A stretch of DNA of 64,000 nt from Caldisericota bacterium (lineage in GTDB: Bacteria; Caldisericota; Caldisericia; JAAYUI01). A model generated the notes under the pieces. The model saw nothing but the letters and a program-made list of their open reading frames with translations. It had not been told where the DNA came from and made no database searches. Positions 4,397 through 62,800 of this stretch are shown here, piece after piece; the first letter of the stretch is position 1; every line of letters starts with the position of its first letter. Position numbers and translations under genes: made by a program. Location: the NCBI GenBank assembly GCA_029548865.1, contig JAKPMO010000015.1, positions 10,482 through 74,481 of the forward strand. The letters are read 5' to 3'.

Positions 4397-4403
4397 GGCG
4401 GAG

Positions 4404-6060: not shown

Positions 6061-6080
6061 GAACCATTTTAAAGAACCAA

Positions 6081-6118: not shown

Positions 6119-6172
6119 AATGACCTTTGACAAGCCAATTTTTGGGACTACTTTTTATGCGGAGGAATTTGA

Positions 6173-7126: not shown

Positions 7127-7138
7127 GGAGAGAAAAAA

Positions 7139-8092: not shown

Positions 8093-8113
8093 GCCACAAT
8101 TTCCCTGCTGCAA

Positions 8114-8147
8114 CAAAATGCCCTCTCTTTTGAGGGGGCATTTTTTA
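8114..8147 (+). terminator. Probable rho-independent terminator after the lipoprotein at 7139-8092
   Basis: ATGCCCTC...GAGGGGGCAT imperfect hairpin followed by TTTTTT. Confidence 0.5.
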
Positions 8148-8272
8148 TGGATAAAAATCACGATATGGGATGTATGATGTATTGATGCGACTAAACCATC
8201 ACTTAATTGTTTGGATAAAATACGATGTTGACATATATAGCTATGATTGCAAAATAGGTCTCTTGGAGAACA

Positions 8273-12202: not shown

Positions 12203-12361
12203 CCTCCCTAATTTATCCCCCAAGCTGGATAAGTTCAAGTGGACCCGTGCAAAACCAAGATTCTTAAAGCAATGACAAATGCTGTTCCATAAAGCATTCT
12301 GAAGTGTCCAAAAAAACATATCCTGTTTTTCCGTGTCAAAAATGCCATGGAAAGGAGTATT

Positions 12362-18317: not shown

Positions 18318-19661
18318 ATGGACGGGGAAATGGAAGAGAAAAAACAGTTAGGATGGAAGGCAATTCTCAAGGAAATGCTTAAGCTAGTTCTTATTTTTAT
18401 ATTCATAATAACAACTGGGATTACCCTGATTGCTCTATGCTCTACGAATACAGACAACGACTTTTTTAACAAAATTAGAGAATTTTTCCAGCCAAAATTT
18501 ACCTATAAAGATTTTGCTCGACTTCCAAATACCAGCTTTTTGTTCAACCAACAATATCTGGGAGTGCTTGAGGTGGAGAATGATTTGACAGAATACATCG
18601 GCTTTGGAGATATCTTTCATCCAGTTTATTCATCTGGCAACAAGATTTTGATTTATCAGGACCAGAACCTTGAACAAGTTGCAAGAGAAATTGAACTCCC
18701 TGGGAATGTAATTGGTAAATCATTTGTTTATTTCTACGATAAAGACAATTCTAGCGCCAGCAATTGGCAATACTACTTTTTGACCCAAAATAATGGCAAG
18801 AATCATATCACAGCTTTCTTGAGCAACAGGTCTAACAATGAGCCACAATATGATCTTCAGCAAAAATTTTCAATTGAGACAAAGGGGACAAAGATAGTTC
18901 CGATAGAAGATTTTGATAATTTTCTTGCGTGCATAGATAATGAAGGCAAGACACTAACTGTTTACAAATCCAGTGGAGAGGTTTTTTGCAATAAAACATT
19001 TGCCAAAAAATCTGCATTTTTCATGATTGGCAAAAATGTTGTCCAATATGATGGCCAGAAGCTGGTTTTATTCACAATTGACAAAAATGATGTTCTCCAG
19101 AAAACAAGCATTTTACTGCCTGATAAAGGGGACGTCTCCAAAGCATCACTTGATGGTGAGAAACACTCAGAAAAGACGTGCTTTACAGACGGTTCAAATG
19201 CGTATTATCTTGATGAATATTTCAACTATATCGAGAAAGCCCCCTTTAAGGATGTGGAGAAATCCCTTTGTGAAGGAGATTTCCTTGTCTGCAAAGATAA
19301 ACTTGTGTCCAATATTCTATTTTCAAATACAGACACTGGCAACAAACCCCACTTCTACACTTTCGAATCTTCAACAGTTTTCAATGACAGGTTCAATTAT
19401 GCACTGCCTTTATTATATTGTTACAAAGTTTTTATGTTGGTAAAAAATAACCTGTTCACATTCTCACCGGTATTTGTATGGAGCAATATAAGAGAAAATC
19501 AAAAAGTGACATATTATGTTTACAGGATGCAAGGTACCCCATTTGGAAGGGTGAAAGGTTTCTTTTTGAAAAACCACAGTGAATTGTTCAAAGTATACGA
19601 GGTCGCATATTTTTATACGGACCACGGGGTCTACCGCTTCAAGGAAGTGACAGAAGACTAA
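18318..19661 (+). CDS. Membrane-anchored Tyr/Phe/Lys-rich protein, LPGE-motif family member, low GC
   Basis: N-terminal TM LVLIFIFIITTGITLIAL. Motif EIELPGNVIGKSFVYFYD. Confidence 0.5.
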   Translation: MDGEMEEKKQLGWKAILKEMLKLVLIFIFIITTGITLIALCSTNTDNDFFNKIREFFQPKFTYKDFARLPNTSFLFNQQYLGVLEVENDLTEYIGFGDIFHPVYSSGNKILIYQDQNLEQVAREIELPGNVIGKSFVYFYDKDNSSASNWQYYFLTQNNGKNHITAFLSNRSNNEPQYDLQQKFSIETKGTKIVPIEDFDNFLACIDNEGKTLTVYKSSGEVFCNKTFAKKSAFFMIGKNVVQYDGQKLVLFTIDKNDVLQKTSILLPDKGDVSKASLDGEKHSEKTCFTDGSNAYYLDEYFNYIEKAPFKDVEKSLCEGDFLVCKDKLVSNILFSNTDTGNKPHFYTFESSTVFNDRFNYALPLLYCYKVFMLVKNNLFTFSPVFVWSNIRENQKVTYYVYRMQGTPFGRVKGFFLKNHSELFKVYEVAYFYTDHGVYRFKEVTED

Positions 19662-19911: not shown

Positions 19912-19942
19912 ACAAAAAGGGGCGGATTTCTCCGCCCCTTCC
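19912..19942 (-). terminator. Rho-independent terminator of the giant surface-protein gene (minus strand)
   Basis: On the minus strand: AAGGGGCGGAGAAATCCGCCCCTT followed by TTTGTTTTTGG. Confidence 0.65.
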
Positions 19943-19959: not shown

Positions 19960-22900
19960 CTAGTAGTATCTGGTCATCGTTATCGTCTTCTCGTCGCCGT
20001 TCCACTGCACCTCTGCGCCAAGCGCCTCGGCTATGAACCTGAACGGGAGGACTGTCCTGCCGTCTTTTATCAACGGCGGCTGTTCAAGCTGGGAGATCTT
20101 TCCATTCACAATGGCGACCTTCGAGCCGATTGTCATCATGATCAGGTCCTTGCCAAGGGTTATGGTCACCTGCTTGACCTGGGCATTCCAGTCCACTTTT
20201 GCGCCAAAGGCCTGGGCAATCGCCCTGACAGGCACAAGTGTCCTGCTGGTTTGCGGGTCAACATAAGGTGCCACATCGAGCTTGCTTATCTGGCCATCGA
20301 CAAGCATAACATCGTTTCCTATCTTCATCTGAACCAGCTTTATCTGCCAGTTGTACAGCTCAAGGGTCGGCCTGGACTGGTTGCCAAGGGCATCGGTTGC
20401 CTCAAACTTGAATGTGTTTTTGCCAAGCACAAGATCGAGTGTGACCACAAACTTGCCCGGCCCGACTTCGATGATTTTTCCATCAATGGCCAGCTTTGCT
20501 TTCTCGCTGGCATTGCCTTCAACCTCAACCTGCTTTGCATTCACAAGCTTTGTTTTCGGCTGGACAAATTCAACCACTGGCGGGGTCGTGTCTTTTGTGA
20601 TGGTGATCTTCTTGGAAATCTTTGTGCCAACAGGATTGGCGGCAATGACTTCGATTTCGTTTACACCTTCCTTGAGTGTGACAGTGACAAAGAACACGCC
20701 ATCAGCGCCAACGCTCACCGGGTTTCCACCAACAGAGACCACTGCCTCGGAGTTTGTCTTGCCCCTGATTGTTATCTGGTCTTCTTTTGTAAGAGATGGC
20801 ACCTCTTCAATCTCAAGAGGCGGCGGGGCGACAGGTGAAACAACTTCTATTACCTGCGGGTTCACCGTTATGTATGTTCCGCTGTCCAGCCTGGCGACTA
20901 TCTTGCCTGGCTTTGTCGGTAGGACATCAAATTCAACTTCACCCTTTGGCCCTGTCTTGGCCTCCATCATGACGCCTGCTCCTTGCACCGTTACAGTGAC
21001 ATTGGAGAGTGGCGCCCTGGAGGCAACGTCTTCAACCGTGACGGCGATCTTCTTCTGGAGTCCGGGGTAGAAGGTGCCGGCATAAACAACATTGAGGCTT
21101 GCGCCCTTTGCAACATCAAACTCAAGCGACTTGCGGGCTATGACAACGTCTTCCCCGAATGTGGCCTTTGCCTTATAGCTGAGGGTTGCAACCGATGTGC
21201 CGGTGTTGCTTGTCGGCGTGTAGTGGACAATGGCCTCGGAGGCCTTTGGGTCAACCTTGCTCTGGGTGGTCTCGACGCTGGTTTTTACTTCAGACTTTGC
21301 GCCCACGCTTGCGACTTCAATTATTCCACCAGGCTTTATCGGGTCCGTTTCCTTCTGACATGCTGGCGTCACCCTTGCCACAAAAACATTGTCGGTGCCA
21401 TAGGCAAGGTCGTAATTGGAAGGCGACAGGAACCCTGTGGAAAGCTCATCGCCGACGTTCTGGTCATAGAGCCTTATAACAGGCTGCTTTATCGGAACAT
21501 TGGTTACTGTCGGGGTGTCCCAGTCGAGTGCAAATGTGCCATCGCCCTTGTACCTGAGGAGCGGATTGAAGGCCATCGACTGTGATCTTGGGGCATCGCC
21601 GGCAACATCTCCCTTGATGACCGATGCCTTGTTGGCACCGAGCAGGCCGCCAACCATAAACACCTGGTCAGCAAAGACGTAGAAGGTAACATTTCCATTT
21701 TCATCCGGGTTGAGCGAATCCTTGTAGTCAATCCTCGAATCACCGTTGAAATCAGAGAAGAAGTAGTTGCCTGCGATCTCGGAGTTGTACACGCAACCCT
21801 TGCCCCAGCTCTTCAGGTCTATTGTTGAGCCATCGAGCTTTGCGCTCGTCTTGCATCTTACAGACATTGGCTTGACAAGGTTTGAAGTGGAAGAGATTTC
21901 GCCTGTTGATGAAATCCCGAACCTGTTGAAATAAGTCAATTTTTCCGGATCAGCGCCGGCGTCAAGGACAAGGAACGGGGTAAACCTGATAAAATCTGTC
22001 GAAGAGCCATACTTGCCCGGCAGTTTTGACGAGCCCTTGAGCAGCTGGCCCTGTGCGTCCTTGAGTGTTGCAACAACCTTGTAAACGCGGCGGTCAAGGC
22101 CGGTCATGCAGGCCTCTGGTTCCTCCGGCCACTTCATTGTGACAGCATCGCCTGTTGCCACGTTGGTTATCGAATAGGTAACCTTTGGTCTTGCGACCTT
22201 GATTGAACCTACACCCCAACTCTTGTAGTCGGACGAGCGTACTTTTATCTGTATTTCACCCTCGTCATTGGCCACAAAACCTGTGAACTTGTATATGCCT
22301 TTGGAGGCCTGCGAGAAATCGTAGCCTATCGGCTTGAACTCGCCAAACAGGTGCTCATTGTCCGATATTGTGCCATCTTTGTTGCGCAGTGAGGTCACTG
22401 TCCAGTAATAGGCACCAACACGTTCCGGTCTGGCATCAGATATGAAGCTGACTGCCTCTTCCGGCTTCAGCTTCCCACCCTTGGTTAGGTCGACCGGCCT
22501 GCCGTTTATGTCCTTTATGGTAAAGGTCAGTGGCTGGTTCGAATTGACAACCTCGGGGGAAACGCCCGCAGTCACAATGCCTGGATTGACTTCAATGATG
22601 ATGTTGGGGTCCTTTGATACCCCGCCACCTGGCTCCGGATACATGCTTACCTGGCCGGCAAGGTAAACCTCGTGCGAGTAGTACTGCCTGGTTCCAGGGA
22701 CGTTCCAGAGAGGGGCAAAGCTCCTGTCGTTGTTATCATCATAATATTTGTAAACGGTCAGATTGACCGGCAATCTTTCGTCCTCTGCAATAACATGGTC
22801 ATTGTTGAAATCAAGGCCGGCATCTTCAATCCTGCAGCCGTTTGAAAGGCTCATGTCAAAGACATACCTGCCGTTGTTGCGCTGATAAGTCCTTGCATCA

Positions 22901-25900
22901 ATGATGCCGCCCACCCAGCTGTTGGTCGCCAGGTTGTAGGCGCCAATGAGCTCGGTTTCGTAGGCATCAAAAGAAATTCTTCCGTCACCGTTCAGGTCCA
23001 TGTCACTGCTGAAGGCGCCAGCCGAGCCGGAGCCAACAGAGGATGACGGGCCGTTTGTCACCCAGCCATCGCCTGCGCCAAAGAAAACGTTGCCGCCCAT
23101 CTGCTGGAGGACACCCCTGTCCTGCCAGACATAGGCCATTGCATCGTTGCATTCCCTGACCACCTGGATGTCTTCCCATTCGGTGATTTTGACATCAAGG
23201 ACGTTGTCGGCAATGATTCCGAGTGTCCCGGGTGCACCTTCTATGTGGAGCCCGTGGACCGGGATTCCCTGTATCCTGTACTCCTGGCAGCAATCTTCCC
23301 AGATCCTTGACTGGCCGTTTGCCAGCTTGACTTCGATCCTTATGACACCTCTGTCAACCGGGATTATCTCGTCAAAAACAAACACGTTGCCATTGACCAT
23401 CGAATAGTCCAGCCTTCTGCTCTGGAGGAGCCTCTGGTTGGCCTGCTGGTAGACATAGCGGTCCTTGAATCCAGGGTTTATGATCCTGGTGAAGTCTTGC
23501 GGGGCAAGCTCGTAGTCTCTCCAGTTGGTCTGGTCAACCACAATCCTGCCAGAATAGTCATACTGTACTGGCACATTCCTGAGGCCATTGTATGTATAGT
23601 CGGTGATCGGGAATCTTGGCGTCATGAATGGCCCGGTTATTTCTATCCACTGTATCTTGTGGTCGCTGTCTGTTGCATTGAACGAGAGGAACTCGCTCCT
23701 TGCATTTGTGAGCATAAAGAAAAGACCATAATCTGTGAGAGGCAGGAACTCTGTTCCAAGCTTCCACACCTGGTCGCGGAATATGGCAGGATATGCGTTC
23801 CTTCCGTCCCCCATTCCACCTTGCACCCTGATTGGGTGTGTCTGTCCACCAGGATATGCCCTGAATTCCCTGACAAGATTTGAAAGAACAGGGTCATAAG
23901 GTGACTGTATCTGGGAGGCCGGGGGTGGCATCCTGGACAGGGCACCAGAGCCAGAGGTGTAGTTGACGCTGGAGTACTGGAGGGCGTGGTCAATTGCGGT
24001 AAATTCGACGAAATTGATGTCTCCATAACCACCGGAGCCACCACCCCCGCCGCCTCCTCCTCCACCACCGCCACCACCTCCGCCTCCACCGCCTCCTCCA
24101 CCGGAGGCAGTTGGCGGGATGACGTGGACACCACAATAGTCGGTGCCCTTGGCAGGCGAGGTGATAAAGTATGGTGGGTGGGTGATTGTGCTGTTGTAAT
24201 CCCAAAGTGCATTATCAGTGTGCACCCTTACATTCAGGCTGGAGGTGCGGTCTGGTGGCCAGCAGGCCACCATTATGCTTCCACCTGGATCGGCCCATGG
24301 GGTCGTCTTGTATGTGGTGACAAAGCATGGCACACCATACGTTTCAATGACTGGCAAATTGACGCCGTCAAACTGGCCCCATGTGTCGCCTTTGGTCACA
24401 ACACCCATTTTTTCGAAGCCCTGGCCACAGATGTCGCATTCTGCAAATCTTCCAGAGCAGTCTATATCAACAAGACTGCCTGAATTGATATTGCCCTGTG
24501 TCGGCCCAACAACAGTGTCTTCCTGGTCAAGTGCGCCAATGGCACCAATGCCTGGCGTCGGGCTCTGGTTGTCGTTCCAGGCCCAGTAATAGTATGTGCC
24601 ATCCTTGTTGACCTGGACTATGTATCTGTTTGTGCCAGTGCCAGCGGTAAACATCCAGTCGATGCCGGCCCCTGTGCAATTGTAGTAGGCAATAATATTG
24701 CCTGCAGAAGCCGTGGTTGAGATGTTGACGCCATTGAGGTCATTCACATCATATGGGTTGTCAAAATCTTTGAGGGTCAAAACAAAGTTCGGGTAGCGGG
24801 TCGAGATGTTTGTAAGACAGACGGTGCTGCAGTCAAAATACATGTCTTCCGGCTCCACCGTGAACTCTTTTGCCAGGTAGCAGTCATAGTTGTTCGGAAT
24901 AATGGTGTTGTTCAGGATCTGCGGGGAAGGAACAACCCAATATCCGTAAGTTCCATCTGGCGGGCCTCCCCAACCAATGTCTTGTGGTTTGCCAGTACCC
25001 TTTTCATAATAAACCTCTATAAGATATGGGTGAATCCTGCCAAATTCGTCGCAAGAGCCTTCATAGGGAGTTATCTGGACAGTGGCTCTTGGGCGATCTT
25101 TGGTTATCGTTCCAGCAACGTTTCTCTGGCCTGAGGCATCAGTCAGCACTATGTAGGCTATTCTGCCTTCGTCAGGCGCCGGGTTCATTGTCAAATTGAC
25201 TTCCGAGGTCTGTTCGACCTTGAACGGTCTCGAGACATTCACCTGCACAGGTGCAACACCCGGCAGGACCTCCATGTCCATGAAGCGGAAATTGCCGCAC
25301 CTTCCAACAGTTATACCAGAAATCGGATAGCTCCTTATGTAAAGCTCAGGGCCGGCAACAACCGTTCCGCACTGATAGGTGTTGCCATTCTTGTTGACCA
25401 CCGTCAGACGAACGTCACCGGCAGTTACGGAGTTGGAAAGATCATTGTCCTGATAAATCCATTCACCCTCTTCAAACTCGTTGTTATTGTTGGCATCAAA
25501 CCAGCCAACGTTCGTGAATGGACGAATAATATAGCCATTATCGACATCACCGGCTGAAACATACGAGCCAGCCTCATAGGTGACTATAGCTCCACCAACA
25601 CTAAACGTGACGGTGGTCATACGCTTGTCGCCAGGGTTGACGATGTCGTTCATGAACGGGTCCTGGGCGGTGTTGAGGTTGTCATATATCGGCTCGCCAC
25701 AGCCAAAACCGGTTCCGCCGCTGTCGTAATACCTGAAGCTTGCCGGGAAGGGTTTTAGTGGGAGGCCGGTATCGGAATCATTCACTCCTGAATTTGAGGC
25801 GCCAATGAAATCCTCACAGGCATACAAGGCCTTGTAGTCATCAGAAAGGTTTTGGGCAAAGCACTGACCTTGCGGGTTGTTGATATTGTTTTCACCAGAA

Positions 25901-26784
25901 TCCCTAAATATCTCAATGCCTACGTAGCTCCTGTAAGACGGCTTAACATTGAAAAAAGTGGTTGCCGGGACCTGAAAATCCAGGCCAGTAGGGCCAAGCA
26001 CGGTTGATTTCTGGATTCTCTGCGATCTTCTGAGTGTCGGGTTTTCAGGGTCAAAGATTGATGCAGCGGTAACGGCCGGATTGACGCCTTCCCACATATC
26101 GGTTTCAACCGAGAGGTTGTAGGAGGTGTTCGGATCGCAAGATGCAAGGAAGGTCTCTGACATGACAAGAGCCATTCCATTGCCAGGAAGCGCAGCCTGC
26201 CCCAACTTGAAAAGCCTCCCTGAAAAATTGCGCGGGAAGGTGTATGGGCCATGTTGATGGCTGATCGGCGTGAACCAGTAGCCCTTGTTGTGGAAGAAGT
26301 TTGCATAGTCGCCGACCCTATATGGGCCCTGTGTGTTGTTGGCCGGAGTATTGTCTGTCTTGAAGTTGTAGTCGTAACACTGACCTGGCGGGTCTGGTCT
26401 TGCTCTTTCGGCAGCATTGTGGAAATAGCCGTCCGGGTCAAACCAGATGTTGCCGTTTGAGTCCAGGATGCAGTTCATCTTGTCTTTTTCAGTGGACTGC
26501 CCGCCTGCACCAATAACGGTAAGATAAACTTCCGACCAATACCTTGGCTGGGACGGCATCGGAAATTGCTGCCTGCCCCACCAGGTGGAAATATCGCCGG
26601 AAGTCCACGGAACGACCCTGCCGGAGAGTGGCTGGCCGCTCCTGTCCTGTCCAAGCGGAGACCACCTGACTACTGCAAAAAGTATGTTTTTTGTTTCGGC
26701 ATAAGCCTGTGGTATTTCGCCAAAAAACGGAACCACGGTGAGCGCCACCGCGAGCGTTAGCATTGTAGCCAAGAGCTTTCTCAT
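19960..26784 (-). CDS. Giant secreted surface protein (~2275 aa). Large conserved N-terminal body shared with the paralog at 56852-64000, a 24-Gly tract, Ca-binding-like DxDxDG loops, C-terminal Ig-like (Big) domains and two copper-amine-oxidase N-terminal (CAO-N) type wall-association domains.
   Basis: GAAAGGAG-N8-ATG at 26784 gives the signal peptide MRKLLATMLTLAVALTVVPFFGEIPQAYA. C-terminus LVPVRAIAQAFGAKVDWN...GRTVLPFRFIAEALGAEVQWN fits CAO-N repeats. DMDLNGDGRISFDAYE is EF-hand/dockerin-like. Long stretches are alignable with the second giant ORF. Confidence 0.8.
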   Translation of the reverse strand: MRKLLATMLTLAVALTVVPFFGEIPQAYAETKNILFAVVRWSPLGQDRSGQPLSGRVVPWTSGDISTWWGRQQFPMPSQPRYWSEVYLTVIGAGGQSTEKDKMNCILDSNGNIWFDPDGYFHNAAERARPDPPGQCYDYNFKTDNTPANNTQGPYRVGDYANFFHNKGYWFTPISHQHGPYTFPRNFSGRLFKLGQAALPGNGMALVMSETFLASCDPNTSYNLSVETDMWEGVNPAVTAASIFDPENPTLRRSQRIQKSTVLGPTGLDFQVPATTFFNVKPSYRSYVGIEIFRDSGENNINNPQGQCFAQNLSDDYKALYACEDFIGASNSGVNDSDTGLPLKPFPASFRYYDSGGTGFGCGEPIYDNLNTAQDPFMNDIVNPGDKRMTTVTFSVGGAIVTYEAGSYVSAGDVDNGYIIRPFTNVGWFDANNNNEFEEGEWIYQDNDLSNSVTAGDVRLTVVNKNGNTYQCGTVVAGPELYIRSYPISGITVGRCGNFRFMDMEVLPGVAPVQVNVSRPFKVEQTSEVNLTMNPAPDEGRIAYIVLTDASGQRNVAGTITKDRPRATVQITPYEGSCDEFGRIHPYLIEVYYEKGTGKPQDIGWGGPPDGTYGYWVVPSPQILNNTIIPNNYDCYLAKEFTVEPEDMYFDCSTVCLTNISTRYPNFVLTLKDFDNPYDVNDLNGVNISTTASAGNIIAYYNCTGAGIDWMFTAGTGTNRYIVQVNKDGTYYYWAWNDNQSPTPGIGAIGALDQEDTVVGPTQGNINSGSLVDIDCSGRFAECDICGQGFEKMGVVTKGDTWGQFDGVNLPVIETYGVPCFVTTYKTTPWADPGGSIMVACWPPDRTSSLNVRVHTDNALWDYNSTITHPPYFITSPAKGTDYCGVHVIPPTASGGGGGGGGGGGGGGGGGGGGGGSGGYGDINFVEFTAIDHALQYSSVNYTSGSGALSRMPPPASQIQSPYDPVLSNLVREFRAYPGGQTHPIRVQGGMGDGRNAYPAIFRDQVWKLGTEFLPLTDYGLFFMLTNARSEFLSFNATDSDHKIQWIEITGPFMTPRFPITDYTYNGLRNVPVQYDYSGRIVVDQTNWRDYELAPQDFTRIINPGFKDRYVYQQANQRLLQSRRLDYSMVNGNVFVFDEIIPVDRGVIRIEVKLANGQSRIWEDCCQEYRIQGIPVHGLHIEGAPGTLGIIADNVLDVKITEWEDIQVVRECNDAMAYVWQDRGVLQQMGGNVFFGAGDGWVTNGPSSSVGSGSAGAFSSDMDLNGDGRISFDAYETELIGAYNLATNSWVGGIIDARTYQRNNGRYVFDMSLSNGCRIEDAGLDFNNDHVIAEDERLPVNLTVYKYYDDNNDRSFAPLWNVPGTRQYYSHEVYLAGQVSMYPEPGGGVSKDPNIIIEVNPGIVTAGVSPEVVNSNQPLTFTIKDINGRPVDLTKGGKLKPEEAVSFISDARPERVGAYYWTVTSLRNKDGTISDNEHLFGEFKPIGYDFSQASKGIYKFTGFVANDEGEIQIKVRSSDYKSWGVGSIKVARPKVTYSITNVATGDAVTMKWPEEPEACMTGLDRRVYKVVATLKDAQGQLLKGSSKLPGKYGSSTDFIRFTPFLVLDAGADPEKLTYFNRFGISSTGEISSTSNLVKPMSVRCKTSAKLDGSTIDLKSWGKGCVYNSEIAGNYFFSDFNGDSRIDYKDSLNPDENGNVTFYVFADQVFMVGGLLGANKASVIKGDVAGDAPRSQSMAFNPLLRYKGDGTFALDWDTPTVTNVPIKQPVIRLYDQNVGDELSTGFLSPSNYDLAYGTDNVFVARVTPACQKETDPIKPGGIIEVASVGAKSEVKTSVETTQSKVDPKASEAIVHYTPTSNTGTSVATLSYKAKATFGEDVVIARKSLEFDVAKGASLNVVYAGTFYPGLQKKIAVTVEDVASRAPLSNVTVTVQGAGVMMEAKTGPKGEVEFDVLPTKPGKIVARLDSGTYITVNPQVIEVVSPVAPPPLEIEEVPSLTKEDQITIRGKTNSEAVVSVGGNPVSVGADGVFFVTVTLKEGVNEIEVIAANPVGTKISKKITITKDTTPPVVEFVQPKTKLVNAKQVEVEGNASEKAKLAIDGKIIEVGPGKFVVTLDLVLGKNTFKFEATDALGNQSRPTLELYNWQIKLVQMKIGNDVMLVDGQISKLDVAPYVDPQTSRTLVPVRAIAQAFGAKVDWNAQVKQVTITLGKDLIMMTIGSKVAIVNGKISQLEQPPLIKDGRTVLPFRFIAEALGAEVQWNGDEKTITMTRYY
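24018..24117 (-). repeat. GGN-codon microsatellite-like tract encoding G24SGG inside the giant protein
   Basis: Plus strand reads ccaccggagccaccacccccgccgcctcctcctccaccaccgccaccacctccgcctccaccgcctcctccaccggagg. The spurious Arg/Trp-rich ORF 23990-24205 is a frame artefact of this tract. Confidence 0.7.
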
Positions 26785-26909
26785 CTTGAAACTCCTTTCG
26801 ATGCATTCATGGCTGATTTGCTTCAAATACACGAAATCTTGGGGTCAAGTTCAAAATTGGGGAGGGTGCTGATGTCTTGATAAAAAATAGAATCTTTTTT
26901 TGAAGACAA

Positions 26910-26944
26910 ACAAAAAAGGCGGGGGCAACCCCGCCTTTTTTGTT
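26910..26944. terminator. Bidirectional rho-independent terminator (downstream of htrA)
   Basis: AAAAAAGGCGGGGGCAACCCCGCCTTTTTTG. Confidence 0.65.
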
Positions 26945-26968: not shown

Positions 26969-28285
26969 CTATTCCGCAGCAGCACCAAGTTTAACGTTAA
27001 AGGTCATCTCTCTTCCATCCCTGCTGACCCTGATCTTGACGACATCTCCCACTTGATGGTTCCTTACCTCAACAAGGAGTCCTTCAAAATCTGTAACTTC
27101 CTTTCCATCTATTGCGGTGATGATATCACCCCTCTGTATTCCTGCTTCCTGGGCACCACCCTTTTCAACCACTGCTATGTATGCACCTGACGCATACTTC
27201 AAACCAAGCTGCGAAGAGAGGTCCTGTGTGAGTGTTGCGCCCCTGACACCAAGCACTGGCCAGCCCACCTTGCCGAACTTGATGAGGTCTTTGGCAACTC
27301 TTGACGCAACATTTGAGGAGACTGCAAAACCTAGATTTTGTGCACCCTCAATAATGACTGTATTGATTCCGACCACCTTGCCATCCAGTGTCACAAGTGG
27401 CCCACCGGAATTGCCTGGGTTGATGGCGGCATCCGTCTGAACAACTCCGACCAGCATACGGCTTTTATCTACCTGTATGTTTCTGGCAAGGGCCGAGATA
27501 ACGCCCGTTGTGACTGTATTTTCAAACTTGTATGGGTTGCCTATTGCAACGACCGGCTGACCAACTTTCAATTTTGAGGAGTCCCCGAGCTCGGCCATTG
27601 GAAGATTTTTCTCTTTCACCTTGAGGATAGCAAGATCGGAAAGTGAATCTGTGGCGACAATCTGGGCCTCAAAATTCCTCTTGTCTATGAGGTGGACAAC
27701 GATCTTTTGGCCATTCTCCACAACATGGTTGTTGGTGAGGATAAAACCTTGTTCATCAGTCCAGGTATTTTTTATTATGACACCAGAACCTGCCGCCTGC
27801 TCGACCCTTACTTGAGGCTGCTGTCTGGCAAATGGGTTGACGTTATTGTCGTTGTTGAAGAACTGCTCAAAAGGATTGTCAAACTGCAATATGGAGTTTG
27901 TAATTTCCTTGTCAACAGTTATCGAGACAACAGCAGGAGATACTTTATTTACCACATCAACAACACCGTCGTAGAACATCTGCTGATTTATCGGGGTTTC
28001 CGGCACCGGCTGCTGGATCACCACGGTACTATTTTTGTTGTCTGCAAGCCTGTATCCCAGGAACCCTGAGAGGCCACCAAAAAGCACCGAGAATACAAGA
28101 GCAAGGGCAATAATTCCGCCCCATCTCGGGGTGTTCTGCCTGTCTGCCTGTCTGCCACCATTTATATTCATCTGCGAATACTGCGGTTTCTCCTCATGAG
28201 CTGGTTCCTTGTACTCAGTATCAATAGTTTCCGGCTCTTCAGTTTTATCTATCGGGGTATAGTTATACTCTTCCTCAAATAACAT
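26969..28285 (-). CDS. htrA: HtrA/DegP-family serine protease, membrane-anchored, with C-terminal PDZ domain
   Basis: AAGGAGG-N8-ATG. N-terminal TM GGIIALALVFSVLFGGLSGFLGY. Catalytic motif GNSGGPLV. PDZ-like C-terminus. Confidence 0.85.
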   Translation of the reverse strand: MLFEEEYNYTPIDKTEEPETIDTEYKEPAHEEKPQYSQMNINGGRQADRQNTPRWGGIIALALVFSVLFGGLSGFLGYRLADNKNSTVVIQQPVPETPINQQMFYDGVVDVVNKVSPAVVSITVDKEITNSILQFDNPFEQFFNNDNNVNPFARQQPQVRVEQAAGSGVIIKNTWTDEQGFILTNNHVVENGQKIVVHLIDKRNFEAQIVATDSLSDLAILKVKEKNLPMAELGDSSKLKVGQPVVAIGNPYKFENTVTTGVISALARNIQVDKSRMLVGVVQTDAAINPGNSGGPLVTLDGKVVGINTVIIEGAQNLGFAVSSNVASRVAKDLIKFGKVGWPVLGVRGATLTQDLSSQLGLKYASGAYIAVVEKGGAQEAGIQRGDIITAIDGKEVTDFEGLLVEVRNHQVGDVVKIRVSRDGREMTFNVKLGAAAE

Positions 28286-28298
28286 CTATTCTTCCTCC

Positions 28299-29408
28299 TT
28301 ATAGCTTTCTTATGACAAGCCTCTTGTCCAGTATCAGGTTTCCAAAACCGTCTATCTTTATGGCTTGTTCAGGGTAAAAGTTGACCTGGTAAGGCTTTCC
28401 GGCATCACCAGTTGGCTTGACAAGGGCCACCATCTTTCCTTCAATCATTTTTTGCGCCTGCACCTCTGAAATCCCCATCTCTACAAGGGAATTTGTTTTT
28501 TCCGGCCAGAGGGGCATCAAAAGCAACAGTGTGAAGCAGAGCACTGTAGCAAGAGATTTGTGCGCCACAAGTTTTTCTTTCTTTGGTTCGAGCAAAGCCA
28601 TGGTTCTCTCCTCGAGTCCGCCAGAAGAAAGATTTGCGGCCACTCTTACCGGTGAACAGAGCTTTGCAACACCTATAAGTGCTTCCGCAAGCGGGAAGGG
28701 TGAACCAATCGCCTTTATTGCAAGGCGGTCAGTCTCCTTTTCAAGCTCCAGCGAATAGCTCTTCCAGGCAAACTTTCCTGGAAGATACGAACAAAGTGCA
28801 ACATTGAGCGTCCAGAGCCACATGTTGATTATGTCTCTGCGCCTTATGTGGGCCATCTCATGGGCAACAACTGCATCAAGTTGCTCTTTTGAAAGCCCCT
28901 TTATCAAATTTTCTGAAATGTAAACAGAGTTTAGGGTCGAGAAGGCCTCGGAACCTGAATTGCCAAGAAAAAAAGTTGTGCTCCTGGTGTCTTGCCCGCC
29001 AAATCCACGAGAAAGCGATTCCCTGAAAGATTTTGGTGCGACACGGTACCCTCTGGTCCTTGAGGACAGCAGAAACAGCCCAAACCCAAGGCGGAAAGTA
29101 ACAAAACCGATTACGATCCACGGCGCAGCGATGAGAAGATAATGCCAGAAGGTCGGCTCCAGCGTGACATTGGCTCCGTAAATAATACCCTCTGTGGAAA
29201 AGAGCTTTGTTGGTGTGAGGGTGAGTTTTACTGTCTCCGGAACAAGACTGGAGAGCATTATGAAGCCGGCAGAAAACCCAAAGAGGGACGCCAGTGACAC
29301 AAAAATTGACCAGCCCAGCCCCTTCGGGGAGAGCTTCCTGCCAAGCAGGAACCACAAGAACGGCCACGCCACAACCAGATAAAGGGCAAAAACAAGACTA
29401 TTTTCCAT
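28299..29408 (-). CDS. BlaR1/MecR1-like M56 family membrane metalloprotease-transducer lacking a penicillin-binding sensor domain
   Basis: Multi-TM N-terminus. HEXXH zinc motif VVAHEMAHI. 369 aa with only a ~70-aa extracytoplasmic C-terminal tail. Confidence 0.8.
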   Translation of the reverse strand: MENSLVFALYLVVAWPFLWFLLGRKLSPKGLGWSIFVSLASLFGFSAGFIMLSSLVPETVKLTLTPTKLFSTEGIIYGANVTLEPTFWHYLLIAAPWIVIGFVTFRLGFGLFLLSSRTRGYRVAPKSFRESLSRGFGGQDTRSTTFFLGNSGSEAFSTLNSVYISENLIKGLSKEQLDAVVAHEMAHIRRRDIINMWLWTLNVALCSYLPGKFAWKSYSLELEKETDRLAIKAIGSPFPLAEALIGVAKLCSPVRVAANLSSGGLEERTMALLEPKKEKLVAHKSLATVLCFTLLLLMPLWPEKTNSLVEMGISEVQAQKMIEGKMVALVKPTGDAGKPYQVNFYPEQAIKIDGFGNLILDKRLVIRKL

Positions 29409-34752: not shown

Positions 34753-34955
34753 GAGAGAGATATTAGCACAATAAATTAAATCAATCAATTGAACGCAGAC
34801 TTGGACAAGGTCAATTTATTGAAAAATCTACATTAAAATTACAGTGTTTTCTCCAATCAAAATAAAGAAATCCCATATTTATGCACAAATTGTTATAAAC
34901 AAAAATACGCCGAAGGTTTCCCCCTCGACGTATCTGAAGCTTTGTGTGTTCCCGG

Positions 34956-38795: not shown

Positions 38796-38842
38796 TTATA
38801 CTCCACTATACGCTAGAGGGATGTATTTTGCCTGTATGTTTT

Positions 38843-39031: not shown

Positions 39032-39077
39032 AATGCCTCCTTTTGGTAATTATAACCAAAAAGGGGCTGGCTTGATA

Positions 39078-56797: not shown

Positions 56798-56834
56798 AAT
56801 AAAAAAGGCCACCCAAAAGGGTGGCCTTTTTTGT
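56798..56834. terminator. Bidirectional rho-independent terminator
   Basis: AAAAAAGGCCACCCAAAAGGGTGGCCTTTTTTG. Confidence 0.65.
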
Positions 56835-56851: not shown

Positions 56852-59800
56852 TTACGGCTGCCTTACAAGTTTTACTTCGTGTGTTGTCTGGTTTTCGGCA
56901 ACATCAATGAACTGGAAGGAGAGTGGAAGTTCTGGAAGGTTTGCATCCATTGTTATTTCGACTTCCCAGATGTCATAGACGACCTTTGCCGGTGCGCCAT
57001 TGACCGTGACCTTGGAGCCTGGATCAATTCTTCCTGAGAGCTTAATCGTTGTCTGATCTTTCGCAACAAGAATCTTTCCATCGACCTCGCCATTGATGAT
57101 GAAGGCTGGCGGTGTAATGTCGACTATTGTTGAGAGTATCCTCATGCTTCTGTTTCCAGCAGCATCAATTGCCTCGACTACGATTGGGTTTACGCCTTCC
57201 TTGAGTGTTATCTTGACTGTGAACTTGCCGGAGTCATCAACCCTGGCGGAAGTTCCATTGACAGTCAGCTTGACGCCTGGCTCTGTCTTTCCGGTTACAT
57301 CAATGGAAGTCTTGTTTCCATATGGTGCGATCGGATCAACATCCAATATTGGCGGGAAGGTGTCTTTTCCAATCATGACCCATGCGGAACCAGCAATGTA
57401 TTCATCGCGCTCTGCAGTGACAACAATCTTGCCCTGTGACTTTGGAGTAACTTTTACCTTGACTTCGCCCTTTGCGTTTGTGGTGAGCGAGGTCTGCTGT
57501 ATTCCTGGGCCTTCGACATAAACGGTTGCTTCTGGAACAACAGCTTCGGTGCCAAGTTCCTTGACGTAGATTGTGAGTTCTGAGGTGGCGTTCGGGGCAA
57601 GGTTGTCGGAAGCGATCATGACTTCAAGTCCCTTGCCAACATCAAGATGGTAGATCTTCTTGAGTGAATACCACTCTGGATTGTCAAGCTGGTATGGATC
57701 TGCAAAGTACCACTTGTTCTTTGCCAGATAGGAGATGAAGGTTGTTGACTGACCGGTTCCGGTTGGAGTGTAGTGGAACGTGGTTTCGGTTGCCATGTCA
57801 TCAACTTCTGACTTCTTGGTCTGTCCATATATCCACTGCTGTGCCTGGTTGCCGGAGACATAGACCCTTCCATCTTCCTTGAGCGGGAGGTCTTCCTTGA
57901 ATGCCGGGTAGACCCTTGCAATGAAGTGGTTGTCGTAGTTGTAAACCATGTCGTAATTGTCGACGTTGAGGAGATCCTTGGAGACTTCGTTGCCGTTCTC
58001 TGCGTAGAAGAGTTCGATTCTCGGGTATGAAACCTGGGCAACCTTGTCCGGAATTGCTTCCCAATCCATGAAGAACACTGTGTCGTTGGTTACTCCATGC
58101 CTAAATCTCTTGACCATGTACCTTGGGTTTGTCTTGTCAGAATATGGTGGGTAGCCTACAAGGTCTGCTTTGACTTGGGTGTTGCAATAGACGTTGTCTC
58201 CAACAAGTCCGCCAACATAGAACAGGTCTTCGGCCCAGAGGTAGAATGAAGTTTGGGCATTAACATCAAGACCAAGTGCATCATGGTAATCAAGCGAGCC
58301 ATTGCGATCGATATCTGTAAAGAGGAAACCGCCCCAATATGGCCAGTTGTAGATGGCACCGAGACCCCATCCAAACGCTGGTGGTGGAAGGAGCAGGTTA
58401 AGTACTTCAACACGCTGTCCGGCTGTACCTTCGTTGATAACTCTCCAGGTCTTGTCGTCCCTGAAGTATTCATTTGTTGTGTTGTAGAAGACTTCACCAA
58501 CACCCTGGCGATCCCAGCACTTGTTGTTAATTGGCCTGAGTGTAAATCCGCCAGCCTTGTAGAGTTCCTGGTCTTGCCATGTGATGTTGCCATCGGCGAC
58601 GAAGTCATAACCAAAGTGCGGGTAGGTGACCTGTGAGCATGGAACGTAGTCACATGTCTGGTTGCGGAAATCAAAGGACTGTGGCCTTGTGGTGAATGGT
58701 GTGAACCTTGCGGTATTCTTTACGCCACCACCGCAGACTGAGACACCCTTCGTTACACCCTTGACCAGCTGGCCCTGGGCGTTGCTAATTGTTACTGTTA
58801 CTTTGTAAATGCGGTTGTCAGCTGCGGTCATTATAAAGTCCGGCTCCCCTGGGACTGTGAAAGCCCTGAGCTGTGGATCTTCCGTGTTGACAACTGAATA
58901 CTCAGCATGTGGGTTGACAATTTTAACATCAACAGAACCCCTGTGCTTGCGGTCTGGTGTGTAGATATAGACTCTGACCAAGTGCTCTTTTTCCCACTGC
59001 TCTCTGTCTGGGTGGTCTTCGTCCTTCATCCAGATGTTGTTATCGTTGGCGCAGAAACCTCTGAAGATGTAGAGACCAGATTTTGCATTGGAGAAGTCTG
59101 GTGTTATTGGTTCAAATGCTTCGAGAATTGTTTCCTTGCAATCGTAGGATGAGTCTCTTCCTCTTGATGAGTAAAGCTCACGGTTATTTACATCTGTTCC
59201 ATCATAGTTGTGGAGGTCTGTTCTGAGGAAGTAGTACTGCGGGAGAATTGAATTTCTTCCATAATAATAGGTGTTGTCTGGGTGCGGATCCTTAAAGAGA
59301 TAGTTCCAACCAACTTTTGGATCAACATCTTTCTTGCCCCATTGGTCGATAATTCCATCAAGCAGGTTGACTGGGTCACCCTTTTCATTCTTAACAACGA
59401 ATGTGAGTGGTGAGTTAACATCAACAAGCTCTGGGGTGATACCGGCTGTGAGTGGGTTTGGTGTATAGGTTACGATAAGGTCATCGTACGGCTCAACTGG
59501 CAATGCAACCTGGGCTGCAAGATAAACTTCGTGGCTGTAACGTGTCCTTGTGTACTGGCCAACAGACGCATCGTACTGGGAGTAGTAGGCATCAAAATCC
59601 CACCATGGCCCAAACGATCTGTCGTTGTTGTCATCACCATACTTGTAGGCAGTGATATAGACTGGCAGTGTTTCGTTGTCCGAGATGATATGGTCTTGTG
59701 GATCAGCAACTCCATTTTCTCCACCAAAATCAAGACCTACTGTGTCGATATTTGCACCGGTTGCCTGGGAGAGTTCGAAGTCATATCTGCCGGTATTGCG

Positions 59801-62800
59801 CTGGAAGGTACGAGCATCAATGATACCGCCCATCCAGGTATTTGTTACCATGTCATAAGTTCCGCAGATTTCAGTCTCATAATCATTGAACTTAATCTTG
59901 TTGTCGCCGTTGACGTCGTTGTCCGGGATGTACTGGGTATGATAATTCTCGGCTCTTGAGGAAGTTGGTGGGTTAGTTACCCAACCATCGCCTGCACCAA
60001 CTACAAGATTGCTCTTGGTGTCACGGAGGTCTTTTACACCCCTGTCCTGCCAGATGTACATGACTGCGTCATTGCAAAGCTGCTCGACTTGCATCGGCTC
60101 ATATTCCTTCAGTGTGAAGGAGAGCTTTTGGATCATGTTTCTGCCAGAATCAAGTGTGATATGGTCAATTGGTTCATAATTCTCGTCGCCTTCGGTCTGC
60201 TTGAGATCAAGGGCTCTGACATCAATTCCGTCAACCGGCGGTGCAGTGCAGCAATCCTGGTACATCTTGAAGGTGCCATCTGCAAGGGTGACGTAGATAA
60301 ATATCTTTCCAGAATTCCACGGGATAAGTTCGTCAATTACGAAAACGTTATCAAGGGAGCAATAGTTGAGCTTGCCTGTTCTCTTGATGCGGATATTCTC
60401 GTTTGAGCCATAATCAACATCGCTGAGAGCAGACCAGTTCATATAGTTTCCACCTGGTATATGCTCGAAGTATGACCAGTTGGTCTCATCTATTACGATC
60501 TTTCCTGAATAGTCATACTGTATCGGAACATTCTGGAGTCCATTATATGCATACCAGTTCAAAACTCTGTTCGTTGTCACATCGACAACTTTTGGACGTG
60601 CAAATGGTCCAACAATTTCGATTCTCTTGATAGTGCGGTCGAGGGTTGGAGATTTGAACGAGAGGTGGTTGCCTTCGCCATCTTTAAGGATGAAATATAG
60701 ACCGTAATCTGTGAGTGGGAAGAATTCAGTTCCAAGCTTGTAGAACATCTCGGATTTTGCATTCTTCTTGCCTTCTTCACTCCAGATTGCCGGATATGCG
60801 TTCCATCCGAAAGCTCCACCATTCTGGTTGAAGTTCTGGCCCTTTACCCTTCCGGTATGTGTTTGTCCACCAGGGTATACCCTGAATCCACCATGTGAAG
60901 TGCGCAGAATTGGCCAGTATGGTGGCTGAATCTGTGGTGCTGGTGGTGGAAGCTGTGAAAGTGCCGGGTTAGTAGATGATGCAACAGTATAGTTAACGTT
61001 GGAATACATGAGTGCTTTATCAACGATGAGCCACTCTGCGAAGTTTACATATGGGTCTGGCGGGTAAACCTTGAGATCAAGGGTACCAGCATAATCAATT
61101 CCATTTACTGTTTCACCAAGATTTATATAACCTGGGTTGTTCTGGTTGATTCCGGTTGGAACATCAGTCCTGAAGTACGGGCTTCCAGTAACCGGGTGAG
61201 CTATTGTCGAGTTGTAATCAAAGATTGCATTGGTCAGATAAACGTGGATGTTGAGATGAGTTGATCCATCTTTTGGATGAATAACTGCGAGGCACTCTCC
61301 ACCTGGATCAGACGGGGTGAGCTCACCATATGGAGTAACATAGGTTGGAACACCATACTGGACGATCCAGGCAAATGCTCCATCAATAATTCCATAATGG
61401 TCTGAACCCAGCGGGTTGCCCCACTGGCCGGTTATGTCGCCGATTGGTTTCATGCCTTCTGGCATGTTGACCCTGCAGGCTATATTGGTGGCCGAAGAGC
61501 AATCTGCATCATCCCAGGATGCCCTGTCATCAACCTTGACGCCTGTGCGTTTTACCTTATCGGTGCACTGGATTGGGAATGTTGTCCATTCCTGACCAAT
61601 GATAACGTCGTTCGCATCAATGGCATTTGGCACCTGTGGACCAAGATTTGGATCGGTGTTGGCCGGTTCATACCAGTACCAATACTCATAAGTTCCGTCG
61701 ATATTGGTCTGGATAATGATTTTTTCACCCTGGACTGCCGGGTTTGCAAGTTCGGCAACTGCAAGCCAGTTGACTCCACCGCCATGGCCATTGTAAACGG
61801 CGATAAGCGGGCTGTCAGTTTTTGGAACTGAAATGTTAACACCATACGGATCATTAACATCGTTTGGATTATCGATATCTGAAAGGGTGAGCATAATGTT
61901 CGGGAAGCGCTGGTCTAGTGTGGTGATACAAGCAACATTTGCGTCAACCTTGAGCTGCTCCGGAAGAACCTCAAAGTGTTTCTCACCATAACAATCATAA
62001 GATTCTGAAAGGGTCATTGGGAGTGGTGGTGCAGGAGCAAGATCAAATCCCTTGTTGTCAGCATCTGTCAGATAAAGTCCTGGTGACTTCTTGCCTGAAC
62101 GCGGGAACCTCTTACCCCAGTGGTTGCCACCGTGGCTACCAATCATGTTCATCATTCTCTTCCAGTCGCCTGTCCAGAAAAGGTCACGATAGAAGTGCAT
62201 GGTGTCCTGACGGAAGAAGTTTTGGGTGATTGGGCTCTGATATCCTGGGTGCTGGTCCGGTGGCACAATCATGAGATCTGCCATAAGCGTACGATTTGCA
62301 AAGAGACCAATTTCCGGGTTGGCCTTGAAAGCCTGAATTCTTACCTTGAGTGCATCTTGTTGTGGTCTTCCAAGCTTGAAGTTTTCTGGATGGCAAGAAC
62401 CCCTATAAGGAGTCATTGTGAAAGTAACTTTCGGGGACTTTGGTGTAAGCACCCTGTACTGTGCATTGATGTTAGTGTCAGACATGCCACCAGCTATTCC
62501 ACCTGGATCACGAACGAGCACATAAACGGCCTCGTCTGGAATCCATAATCTGTGATCGCCTTTGTCAACCCAGTGGCCTTCTCTTGGCGGCGGGTTAACA
62601 GAAACTGTGATGTCAGAGGTCTGCTCAACCATCAGTTCTTTGTCGATCTGGACATCAAGCTTGATGTCTCCAGGAATGACTTCCCAGTCCATATATCTTG
62701 AATCGCAATTGAGTCCTGAGGTAACACCATATGGAACTGATGCATAGAGATAGAAATCAAATGGAGGAACGATTGATCCACAATCATACCATGTGTCGCC

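Follow-up and report, generated by a model that had tools for sequence, protein, structure and literature searches.

Two giant reading frames, ORF A and ORF B, in a 64,000-nucleotide stretch of Caldisericota DNA (the window) raise the question of what these bacteria do with exported proteins of more than 2,200 residues. Known domains and folds leave most of each protein unmatched, so their function has to be inferred. Caldisericota occur widely, in anaerobic digesters, sediments, and hot springs. The literature consulted names one cultured species, Caldisericum exile, whose outer envelope looks like an outer membrane, yet BamA was not found (PMC4104836; PMC7736352); Caldisericota are likewise reported to lack BamA/Omp85. 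In the literature on Caldisericota surface, giant, or stalk-domain proteins, we found no description of the family.

ORF A is a complete gene. Its start is the ATG at 26784, which is also the start annotated publicly on an identical contig, and its frame is unbroken over 2,274 codons. An identical protein with the same start occurs on at least 19 public contigs, so the locus is not hypervariable; orthologs are 60-98% identical among the matches listed. The hairpin upstream, whose plus-strand image the terminator scan placed at 26921-26938, insulates ORF A as a separate transcription unit.

19960..26784, minus strand: ORF A, complete gene, 2,274 aa, A-type orthogroup (ORF list and translation)
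26698..26784, minus strand: Sec-type signal peptide, aa 1-29, MRKLLATMLTLAVALTVVPFFGEIPQAYA followed by E (ORF A sequence; equivalent N terminus in all complete family members)
26792..26798, minus strand: ribosome-binding site AAAGGAG, 7 nt 5' of the ORF A ATG (read from the sequence)
26912..26940, minus strand: G+C-rich hairpin with T-run between the HtrA-like gene and ORF A (sequence)
19915..19942, minus strand: intrinsic terminator directly 3' of ORF A, 12-bp stem with 7 G-C pairs (terminator scan)
26969..29408, minus strand: HtrA-like serine protease (Trypsin_2 and PDZ) and M48-like metallopeptidase, directly upstream of A (Pfam)

ORF B is cut by the window end. Its frame is uninterrupted for all 2,382 visible codons, and as its B-type orthologs L026 and L046 (97%-type) are 2,938 aa long, about 556 N-terminal residues of B lie outside the window.

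56852..64000, minus strand: ORF B, 3' 2,382 codons of a ~2,940-aa paralog, B-type orthogroup; 5' end beyond the window
57611..61054, minus strand: central and C-terminal family-specific modules of B, B aa 983-2130 (comparison with A)
59882..59917 and 58280..58315, minus strand: Ca-loops of B
56855..57568, minus strand: C-terminal Ig-like domains of B, namely CarboxypepD_reg-like, Glucodextran_B/Big_6, and one more sandwich (Pfam)
56801..56832, minus strand: intrinsic terminator 3' of ORF B, 14-bp stem

By BLASTP the two proteins share 33% identity over 1,786 columns (E = 0) and 31% over a further 508 columns (E = 1e-52). The similarity covers A 171-2143, which exceeds the ~1,700 residues that the earlier note had claimed. 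A and B are true, ancient paralogs. They are also part of a wider family. Searched with profiles, 1.84 billion representative proteins yielded 89 matches, made up of family members or fragments and four weak outliers. Of the outliers, P0090 (an archaeal PGF-CTERM protein with DUF4198) and P0100 (with eight Calx-beta repeats) were rejected as relatives, since what they share is generic beta-sandwich repeats; P0113 (FG-GAP) was rejected as well, its common part in an exhaustive profile search being the first Ca-loop only; and P0093 is without any Pfam family.

All named members derive from genomes of uncultured Caldisericia/Caldisericota, and judged from these matches the family is restricted to the class Caldisericia. 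Among the best 80 of 150 genome matches, there were two to eight copies in each of 22 genomes and no named member from C. exile. The paralogs sort into deep orthogroups, each represented once per genome. In the 22 genomes, two ~2.2-Mb assemblies among them, the orthologs (60-98% identity) are complete in length and carry signal peptides. Members run to 2,200-3,600 residues, are secreted, and are almost all-beta; head-less short forms of ~900-985 aa also occur. As A and all complete relatives carry Sec signal peptides, A and B are almost certainly exported. In the closest relative of the window organism, four copies are known among the matches listed, which would amount to ~1.5% of a 2.2-Mb genome.

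Within ORF A we distinguish the following parts.

24109..26697, minus strand: N-terminal family-specific region, aa 30-892, almost all-beta
24025..24108, minus strand: Gly/Ser linker, aa 893-920, including a run of 22 Gly, joining the N-terminal module of A to the central one
22603..24024, minus strand: central region, aa 921-1394, best-conserved part of the family (invariant columns in 22-28 sequences; conservation profile)
22951..22998, minus strand: EF-hand/dockerin-like Ca-loop motif 1, aa 1263-1278, DLNGDGRISFDAYETE
21085..22602, minus strand: C-terminal family-specific module, aa 1395-1900, beta-sandwich domains
21718..21753, minus strand: Ca-loop motif 2, aa 1678-1689, DFNGDSRIDYKD
20302..21084, minus strand: three Ig-like beta-sandwich domains, one weak CarboxypepD_reg-like and two Glucodextran_B-type (Pfam)
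19978..20301, minus strand: Cu_amine_oxidN1 ("stalk") domain, aa 2162-2269 (Pfam PF07833, 123.5 bits against a cut-off of 24.2)

The large body of these proteins had been described as unassignable, and so it proved: the first ~1,900 residues were unmatched in Pfam, NCBIfam, and the PDB (phmmer, with single sequences and with profiles). Pfam models for Ig, cadherin, and FnIII domains all stayed below threshold, both in the first ~1,900 residues of A and in a set of 14 N-terminal regions. Sequence profiles and structure searches (Pfam, NCBIfam, and PDB libraries, the last also covered by the structure-model searches) recognised no catalytic family or fold, and the central region matched nothing in the PDB and nothing outside the family among the 1.84 billion representatives. 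AlphaFold2 models, at a pLDDT of 72-75, have almost no helices and are almost purely beta-sandwich-like. The best-conserved stretch (A ~950-1010) is poorly modelled and, given this and the moderate confidence of the models, the missing fold match is weak evidence.

The earlier note had allowed that the body might turn out to be ordinary Ig-type repeats or a glycoside hydrolase. One part of this holds, as A ~1395-1900 behaves like beta-sandwich or Ig-like modules, which profile searches link weakly to DUF4198/CarboxypepD_reg and to Calx-beta repeat proteins. The remainder does not: these modules are not tandem repeats, and nothing matches the N-terminal ~1,360 residues. The body is thus neither a generic tandem-Ig adhesin nor a glycoside hydrolase. 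At the DNA level, tandem repeats (TRF) are absent from A and B except for the Gly linker. The N-terminal region of A does hold two copies of a ~75-aa "GE-IY...GDxRLT" repeat, with GD at aa 385 and 456. GEVED (PF20009) was tried for this repeat and rejected, the best score being 22.2 bits (a sub-segment of A) against a gathering score of 24.4; across the 14 N-terminal regions, A alone matched, at a subthreshold 17.8 bits.

The Gly/Ser linker of A, a 28-residue stretch, is a hinge between the N-terminal and central modules. Its glycine run had been put at 24 residues and is in fact 22 (A 895-916). G/S-rich linkers are kept in the A-type orthologs P0001-P0004, and other paralogs have a short "PPDPYVNF" junction at that place.

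Conservation among paralogs is 30-55% identity in the unassigned body versus 20-24% in the Ig/anchor part, and more than 150 alignment columns are invariant. Motifs of the central region include YPGGQTHxxR, NAYPAI, KLGTEFxPLTDYG, QDCC (EDCC in A), WQDRG, GAGDGW, ETE, DARTxQR, YKYGDDNNDR (YKYYDDNNDR in A), and SHEVY; invariant polar residues of the body include His869, His983, His1371, the vicinal pair Cys1165-Cys1166, and several Glu, Asp, and Arg. The two Ca-loop-like motifs singled out earlier, at A 1263-1278 and B 1362-1377 (DVNGDNKIKFNDYETE), both exist and align with each other. In this loop, D1263, E1276, T1277, and E1278 do not vary among 22 family members. Another conserved loop, at A 1678 and B 1896, has the family consensus DxDxNGxLDYHD and an invariant last Asp (D1689, A numbering). 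EF-hand_5 scores 14.3 bits on the first loop against a Pfam threshold of 25.9, with the 12-residue loop consensus conserved, and the structure model shows the loop without flanking helices; what is supported is the loop motif. The conserved Asp/Asn/Glu-rich motifs, both loops among them, probably bind Ca2+ and stiffen the fold.

The C termini differ in their anchoring modules, as had been proposed, with Ig-like domains plus Cu_amine_oxidN1 in A and Ig-like domains without it in B. Glucodextran_B exceeds its gathering score (27) in both proteins, at 49 bits in two stretches in A and 44.7 bits in B, the matches being confined to the last ~350 residues; CarboxypepD_reg, at 21.5 bits in A, stays below its cut-off. 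Pfam bears out that Ig-like domains alone end B, and Cu_amine_oxidN1 is absent from B and from B-type orthologs, leaving no recognisable anchor in B. In A, two amine-oxidase N-terminal (CAO-N) repeats had been claimed; what is present is one 108-residue Cu_amine_oxidN1 domain, matched in a single stretch, inside which two similar half-motifs are visible. A PDB profile search with this domain matches domain 1 of E. coli amine oxidase. We presume it to be an envelope- or wall-association module, and we know of no experimental demonstration of wall binding by such domains. The Ig and CAO-N cassette of A recurs at the end of an unrelated beta-propeller surface protein in the window (32620-34788; 32% identity). 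The C-terminal family-specific module also stands alone behind a signal peptide in the ~900-985-aa short paralogs, and in P0050 and P0053 this module, Ig domains, and CAO-N together form an autonomous secreted protein and can thus be treated as a separable stalk/anchor unit.

Taken together, we propose, with about even confidence, that A and B are Sec-exported, non-enzymatic, Ca2+-stabilised, envelope-associated "head-on-stalk" structural or adhesive proteins of an ancient multi-paralog set. The C-terminal third would form the stalk, a string of beta-sandwich domains (in A, the 1395-1900 module and the three Ig-like domains), and an A-type stalk would end in Cu_amine_oxidN1, holding the protein at the cell wall or envelope. 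The N-terminal ~1,360-2,000 residues would form a large head, all-beta and without counterpart in other proteins, with conserved acidic motifs, two EF-hand/dockerin-like loops among them, that probably bind Ca2+ and stiffen it; in the A type, this head would be split by the flexible poly-Gly hinge. Such heads may build or decorate the outermost layer of the cell and establish contacts, and other components would retain paralogs that, like B, lack the anchor. We infer both this geometry and the structural or adhesive role. In favor of a structural role are the export signals, the separable stalk/anchor unit and its cassette on the propeller protein, the conserved acidic loops, which suit Ca sites, the deep orthogroups with their synteny, the terminators after A and after B, the upstream insulation of A with its consensus ribosome-binding site, and an acidic pI (4.8-4.9 in A and B, with a Cys content of 1.0-1.2%). 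Against it, the body is conserved more strongly than the Ig/anchor part, and the invariant polar residues would also suit an active site; B moreover lacks a recognisable anchor, and codon usage gives no sign of unusually high expression of A or B.

These same features are what an enzyme would explain. The head could be a new-fold enzyme that degrades polymers or remodels the envelope (acting on glycan, protein, or peptidoglycan), with the Ig stalk and Cu_amine_oxidN1 keeping it at the cell surface. Its tight invariant motifs contain many His, Glu, Asp, Arg, Tyr, and Trp residues and come with the vicinal Cys pair, PF07833 domains are often joined to cell wall hydrolases (PMC4137172), and A-type genes adjoin HtrA-like and M48-like peptidase genes. 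We nevertheless consider an enzyme rather unlikely, as no sequence or structure search returned a catalytic family or fold, the models are almost purely beta-sandwich-like, head-less short paralogs occur, and keeping two to eight ancient paralogs, each longer than 2,200 aa, in a 2.2-Mb genome would be unusual for one activity. A repetitive adhesin of the RTX, Bap, or Ig-tandem kind, its body a long chain of diverged Ig, cadherin, or FnIII repeats, is much less probable still. Acidic Ca-type motifs occur, and NCBIfam Ca_tandemer gives a weak match; this match reaches only 29 bits against a cut-off of 50, however, and is confined to the C-terminal Ig region of B. The DNA, apart from the Gly linker, has no tandem repeats, the Pfam repeat models stayed below threshold as described above, and the proteins have an N-terminal Sec signal rather than a C-terminal T1SS signal.

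It might also be asked whether a mis-assembled, chimeric, or decaying pseudogene pair could merely resemble giant ORFs, as the window end cuts B and GC content in the window is uneven. The unbroken frames of 2,274 and 2,382 codons, the identical A protein on at least 19 independent contigs, the full-length orthologs with signal peptides in 22 genomes, and the invariant columns refute an artefact, to which we assign a negligible probability.

A more far-reaching version of the head-on-stalk proposal, which we regard as a doubtful prospect, is that the multi-paralog set is the building material of the "outer membrane-like," electron-lucent Caldisericota envelope, a previously undescribed, lineage-defining proteinaceous outer sheath of new beta folds. 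Such a set would comprise anchored A-type, anchor-less B-type, further ~3,000-3,600-aa types, and head-less short forms. In this layer the conserved heads would interlock, with the Ig/Cu_amine_oxidN1 stalks fastening it to the wall, and the HtrA/M48 peptidases encoded next to A might serve its maturation.

Giant surface proteins are an already known kind, and the Caldisericia family is a new form among them. PF07833 proteins have been found in a Gram-positive surfaceome, and the domain is described as common in cell wall hydrolases (PMC4137172). A resembles the PF07833 surface proteins known from Firmicutes and their relatives in closing with a full-length copy of the domain, and several family members carry the NCBI name "stalk domain-containing protein"; as in Desulfotomaculum (PMC4137172), the domain terminates exported proteins that lack an amine-oxidase catalytic domain. 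Unlike in other PF07833 proteins, it makes up less than 5% of A and is missing in the B type, and the remaining ~2,150 residues share nothing with them. In contrast to RTX adhesins (MpIBP/LapA) and Bap, the family lacks tandem near-identical repeats, RTX nonapeptides, and a T1SS signal, is exported by a Sec signal peptide, ends in CAO-N (A) or an Ig domain (B), scores below the Ca_tandemer cut-off, and has ancient, stable paralogs that are not repeat-expanded. It differs from Ig-built S-layer glycoproteins (Haloferax csg, PDB 7ptp) and SLH-anchored ones in lacking PGF-CTERM and SLH, the latter (PF00395) being absent from A, B, and the precomputed Pfam annotation of more than 40 relatives. Its proteins exceed typical S-layer proteins three- to fivefold in size, and there are several distinct paralogs per genome. 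Unlike alpha-2-macroglobulin/complement MG-domain proteins, the family has no thioester domain, almost no helices in the models, and no match to A2M Pfam families.

Every genome sampled keeps several ancient paralogs, none functionally annotated, and each protein holds ~1,400-2,000 residues of apparently new beta architecture. This retention, the lineage restriction, and the share of the genome make the family an obvious candidate for a role in the envelope or in cell-cell or cell-substrate contact. Its importance would be greater if it builds the BamA-less outer envelope of Caldisericota; if it is merely a lineage-specific adhesin, the result is a useful annotation and no surprise.

The HtrA/M48 pair lies beside A-type orthologs at L001-L004 and L008 (29-96% identity) and also at L077, and B-type orthologs keep a 367-aa protein and IspD as neighbours. 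We rejected these conserved neighbours as evidence of functional partnership because synteny holds within each orthogroup only and thus mainly reflects vertical inheritance; a link between A and the peptidases would be conjectural. In codon usage (GC3 and C-ending two-fold codons, a proxy for expression), A and B lie slightly above the window median and are no outliers.

The window encodes two members of a giant, lineage-restricted, and previously undescribed surface-protein family, which joins C-terminal modules of known type to a large body without an assigned domain; our literature searches found no description of it. The two genes are very long reading frames:

26784 (ATG) to 19960 (stop), minus strand, ORF A, 2,274 aa
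56852 to the window edge, minus strand, ORF B, 2,382 codons visible

The ATG of ORF A is preceded at 7 nt by AAAGGAG, and its product begins with what is, from the sequence, a typical Sec signal peptide (MRKLLATMLTLAVALTVVPFFGEIPQAYA, aa 1-29, followed by E). On an identical contig (GCA_035421045.1, DAOLWD010000009.1, 64,597 bp), the public gene call also begins at this ATG. A hairpin terminator at ~26912-26940 insulates ORF A upstream; a strong terminator (19915-19942) follows it, and a terminator with a 14-bp stem follows ORF B. Because near-identical B orthologs in related genomes (L026 and L046) are 2,938 aa long, with a signal peptide, ~556 N-terminal residues of B lie outside the window. 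The exact 2,274-aa A protein, poly-Gly tract included, was found on at least 19 contigs, and the population carrying it appears very uniform. An artefactual origin of the giant reading frames is excluded. The two places given for identical ORF A (L077 and L078) are one NCBI assembly and one SRA run, and Gly-tract length differs by ~1 residue between A and its close relatives L001 and L002.

BLASTP aligned A with B at 33% identity over 1,786 columns (E = 0) and, in a second segment, at 31% over 508 columns (E = 1e-52), jointly covering A 171-2143. By this comparison the paralogy is real, and it spans somewhat more than the ~1,700 residues proposed in the earlier note. The Ca-loop motifs reported there are present in both proteins, aligned with each other, and conserved across the family, with a second conserved Ca-loop at A 1678 and B 1896. 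The C termini differ as described, A ending in Ig domains plus Cu_amine_oxidN1 (PF07833, CAO-N) and B in Ig-type sandwiches only, according to Pfam/NCBIfam. Two details need correction: the supposed 24-Gly linker has 22 consecutive Gly (A 895-916) within a 28-residue G/S linker, and the two CAO-N repeats are one domain (a single Pfam stretch, 123.5 bits) in which two similar half-motifs are visible.

What Pfam and NCBIfam recognize is confined to the C-terminal ~370 residues of A (a weak sandwich resembling CarboxypepD_reg, a pair of Glucodextran_B-type Ig domains, and Cu_amine_oxidN1) and the C-terminal ~250 of B. The first ~1,900 aa of A had no Pfam match, either within the whole protein or as ten overlapping subsegments (E <= 5), nor did the N-terminal regions of 14 diverse relatives. 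Among PDB sequences, phmmer matched only the Gly linker in these ~1,900 aa, and family profiles matched nothing there, in line with the earlier note, which could assign the body to no known domain. Only two signals came close to a cut-off: GEVED, seen just in A with 22 bits (cut-off 24.4), and EF-hand loops, with 14 bits (cut-off about 26). Neither counts as a match.

Family alignments and structure models together suggest the following layout for A:

A aa 1-29, signal peptide
A aa 30-892, N-terminal family-specific region
A aa 893-920, G/S hinge, kept in A-type orthologs
A aa 921-1394, central region, the most conserved part of the family
A aa 1395-1900, C-terminal family-specific module, followed by three Ig-like domains and then Cu_amine_oxidN1

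The boundary at ~1395 is independently supported, since complete proteins of ~900-985 aa (e.g., P0050 and P0053, from the profile search) pass directly from a signal peptide to the C-terminal module, Ig domains, and CAO-N. The N-terminal region holds two copies of a ~75-aa repeat (GE-IY...GDxRLT...Y-AGS-V-GD-D), of which longer paralogs have up to five. Invariant motifs of the central region include YPGGQTHxxR, KLGTEFxPLTDYG, QDCC (EDCC in A), WQDRG, GAGDGW, a Ca-loop then ETE, DARTxQR, YKYGDDNNDR (YKYYDDNNDR in A), and SHEVY. At the position of the A-type poly-Gly/Ser hinge, non-A paralogs have a short conserved junction, PP-DP-YVNF (PPDPYVNF). The equivalent stretch of A is aa 890-925 (window ~24010-24115). 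Processing might take place at the conserved Asp-Pro bond of the junction, which lies at the border of two modules.

With A 1-1880 as the query, a word-indexed search of 5.8 billion protein clusters matched 27, all of 1,280-3,265 aa and all but one above 2,000 aa; a profile of the N-terminal region matched 34 clusters, all family members. With a HMMER profile of A 921-1900, only 89 of 1.84 billion representatives matched at E <= 1e-3, nearly all family members or fragments. Four weak outliers were rejected as relatives: P0090 (an archaeal PGF-CTERM protein with DUF4198/CarboxypepD_reg repeats) and P0100 (a Calx-beta repeat protein) share only a generic beta-sandwich likeness, P0113 (an FG-GAP protein) matches the Ca-loop only, and P0093, which lacks any Pfam family, has nothing identifiable in common.

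When one genome from each GTDB species was scanned, 150 coding stretches emerged; the matches listed comprise 76 loci in 22 genomes, with 2-8 copies per genome among them. These loci are labeled Caldisericota, Caldisericia, or Caldisericales, except for one Calditrichota bin and two labeled "bacterium," and the cluster names, among which there is no cultured organism, contribute nothing beyond MAGs of Caldisericia and Caldisericales (a single entry being called just "bacterium"). The two copies in the MAG Calditrichota bacterium CTOTU18381 (L007, DAIMET010000033.1; L013, DAIMET010000002.1) group tightly with Caldisericota copies in the tree; the bin is probably mislabeled or contaminated. All complete members (2,200-3,555 aa) have a Sec signal peptide, and the proteins are large (about 245-267 kDa or more), with an acidic pI of 4.8-4.9.

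A neighbor-joining tree of 59 copies resolved deep orthogroups, with one copy apiece from several genomes. A-type proteins (2,200-2,280 aa) have the G/S linker and CAO-N, and B-type proteins (~2,910-2,950 aa) lack CAO-N. Gene neighborhood is kept within each orthogroup: B-type genes have a 367-aa protein and IspD downstream, and A-type genes have the following pair upstream, down to 60-65% identity:

26969-29408, minus strand, HtrA-like (Trypsin_2 plus PDZ) and M48-like peptidase genes, directly upstream of ORF A

The peptidases might take part in maturation or quality control of the giant protein; alternatively, the gene order may simply be inherited. Deep orthogroups and kept neighborhoods indicate that the paralogs are old and stably retained and did not arise by recent or hypervariable expansion, in keeping with the occurrence of an identical A sequence on at least 19 contigs.

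The best-supported reading is an exported, envelope-associated, probably Ca2+-stabilized set of proteins, structural or adhesive in role and built as a head on a stalk. The family-specific N-terminal ~1,360-2,000 residues would form the functional head and the beta-sandwich module and Ig domains the stalk; Cu_amine_oxidN1 would tether A-type proteins, and anchorless paralogs such as B would be kept in place through other components. PF07833 is described, in work on the Desulfotomaculum surfaceome, as a domain of exported wall-associated proteins (PMC4137172). An unrelated PQQ-like propeller protein (32620-34788) ends in an Ig plus CAO-N cassette with 32% identity to A 2053-2270, which suggests a shared localization module. 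The evidence does not favor a generic adhesin of the tandem-Ig or RTX type, as A and B have no tandem repeats except the Gly linker, export is by a Sec signal, and Ca_tandemer falls below its cut-off.

The main rival to a structural or adhesive role is enzymatic activity at the surface, based on a new catalytic fold; this rival is kept in play by the many invariant polar residues of the body and by the body's greater conservation (30-55% identity between paralogs versus 20-24% in the Ig/anchor part). AlphaFold2, given an alignment of 28 family sequences, yielded two almost wholly beta models (A 31-960, pLDDT 75.4, pTM 0.61; A 921-1900, pLDDT 71.9, pTM 0.51), in which no catalytic fold was recognized. 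Foldseek against all PDB chains returned nothing at E <= 1e-3. Given the only moderate confidence of the models and their poor quality over the most conserved stretch (A ~950-1010), the missing match suggests new folds but does not prove them. Caldisericum exile has an electron-lucent, outer membrane-like envelope, BamA/Omp85 was not found in this species (PMC4104836; PMC7736352), and Caldiserica are discussed among lineages that lost the classical outer membrane (bioRxiv 10.1101/2021.05.31.446380). That the multiparalog set builds this envelope is an unlikely, though conceivable, extension.

Other genes in the window include a set of propeller proteins:

32620-43391, minus strand, three adjacent large PQQ-like/BamB-like beta-propeller proteins (722, 1,279, and 1,437 aa)
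12347-13507, plus strand, 386-aa propeller protein

The three are paralogs of one another and of the 386-aa protein, and the Ig plus Cu_amine_oxidN1 end resembling the ORF A C terminus belongs to the 722-aa member. With this set, the region appears to hold a second family of surface proteins that has expanded. Four ORFs without a Pfam match (22-1359, 13573-14892, 16939-18156, and 18318-19661) have a GC content of 33-36% versus ~45% for the window, and the first, second, and fourth are weakly interrelated (22-24% identity). The last adjoins ORF A and is 40% identical in relative L001 and 90% in L002; the four may form a gene family that was acquired or varies between strains. Consecutive ORFs of 200-350 aa at 3243-9316 (plus strand) show weak mutual similarity (6173-7126 versus 7139-8092, 22% identity over the full length, E = 2e-14), with no Pfam match and no relatives among the relatives' loci compared. 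Finally, the TTG start annotated for the 1,437-aa propeller gene lies in a ~20-nt overlap with an Fpg/Nei-type DNA glycosylase ORF on the other strand (H2TH plus zinc finger; 43370-44296, plus strand), so the propeller gene probably begins further downstream.
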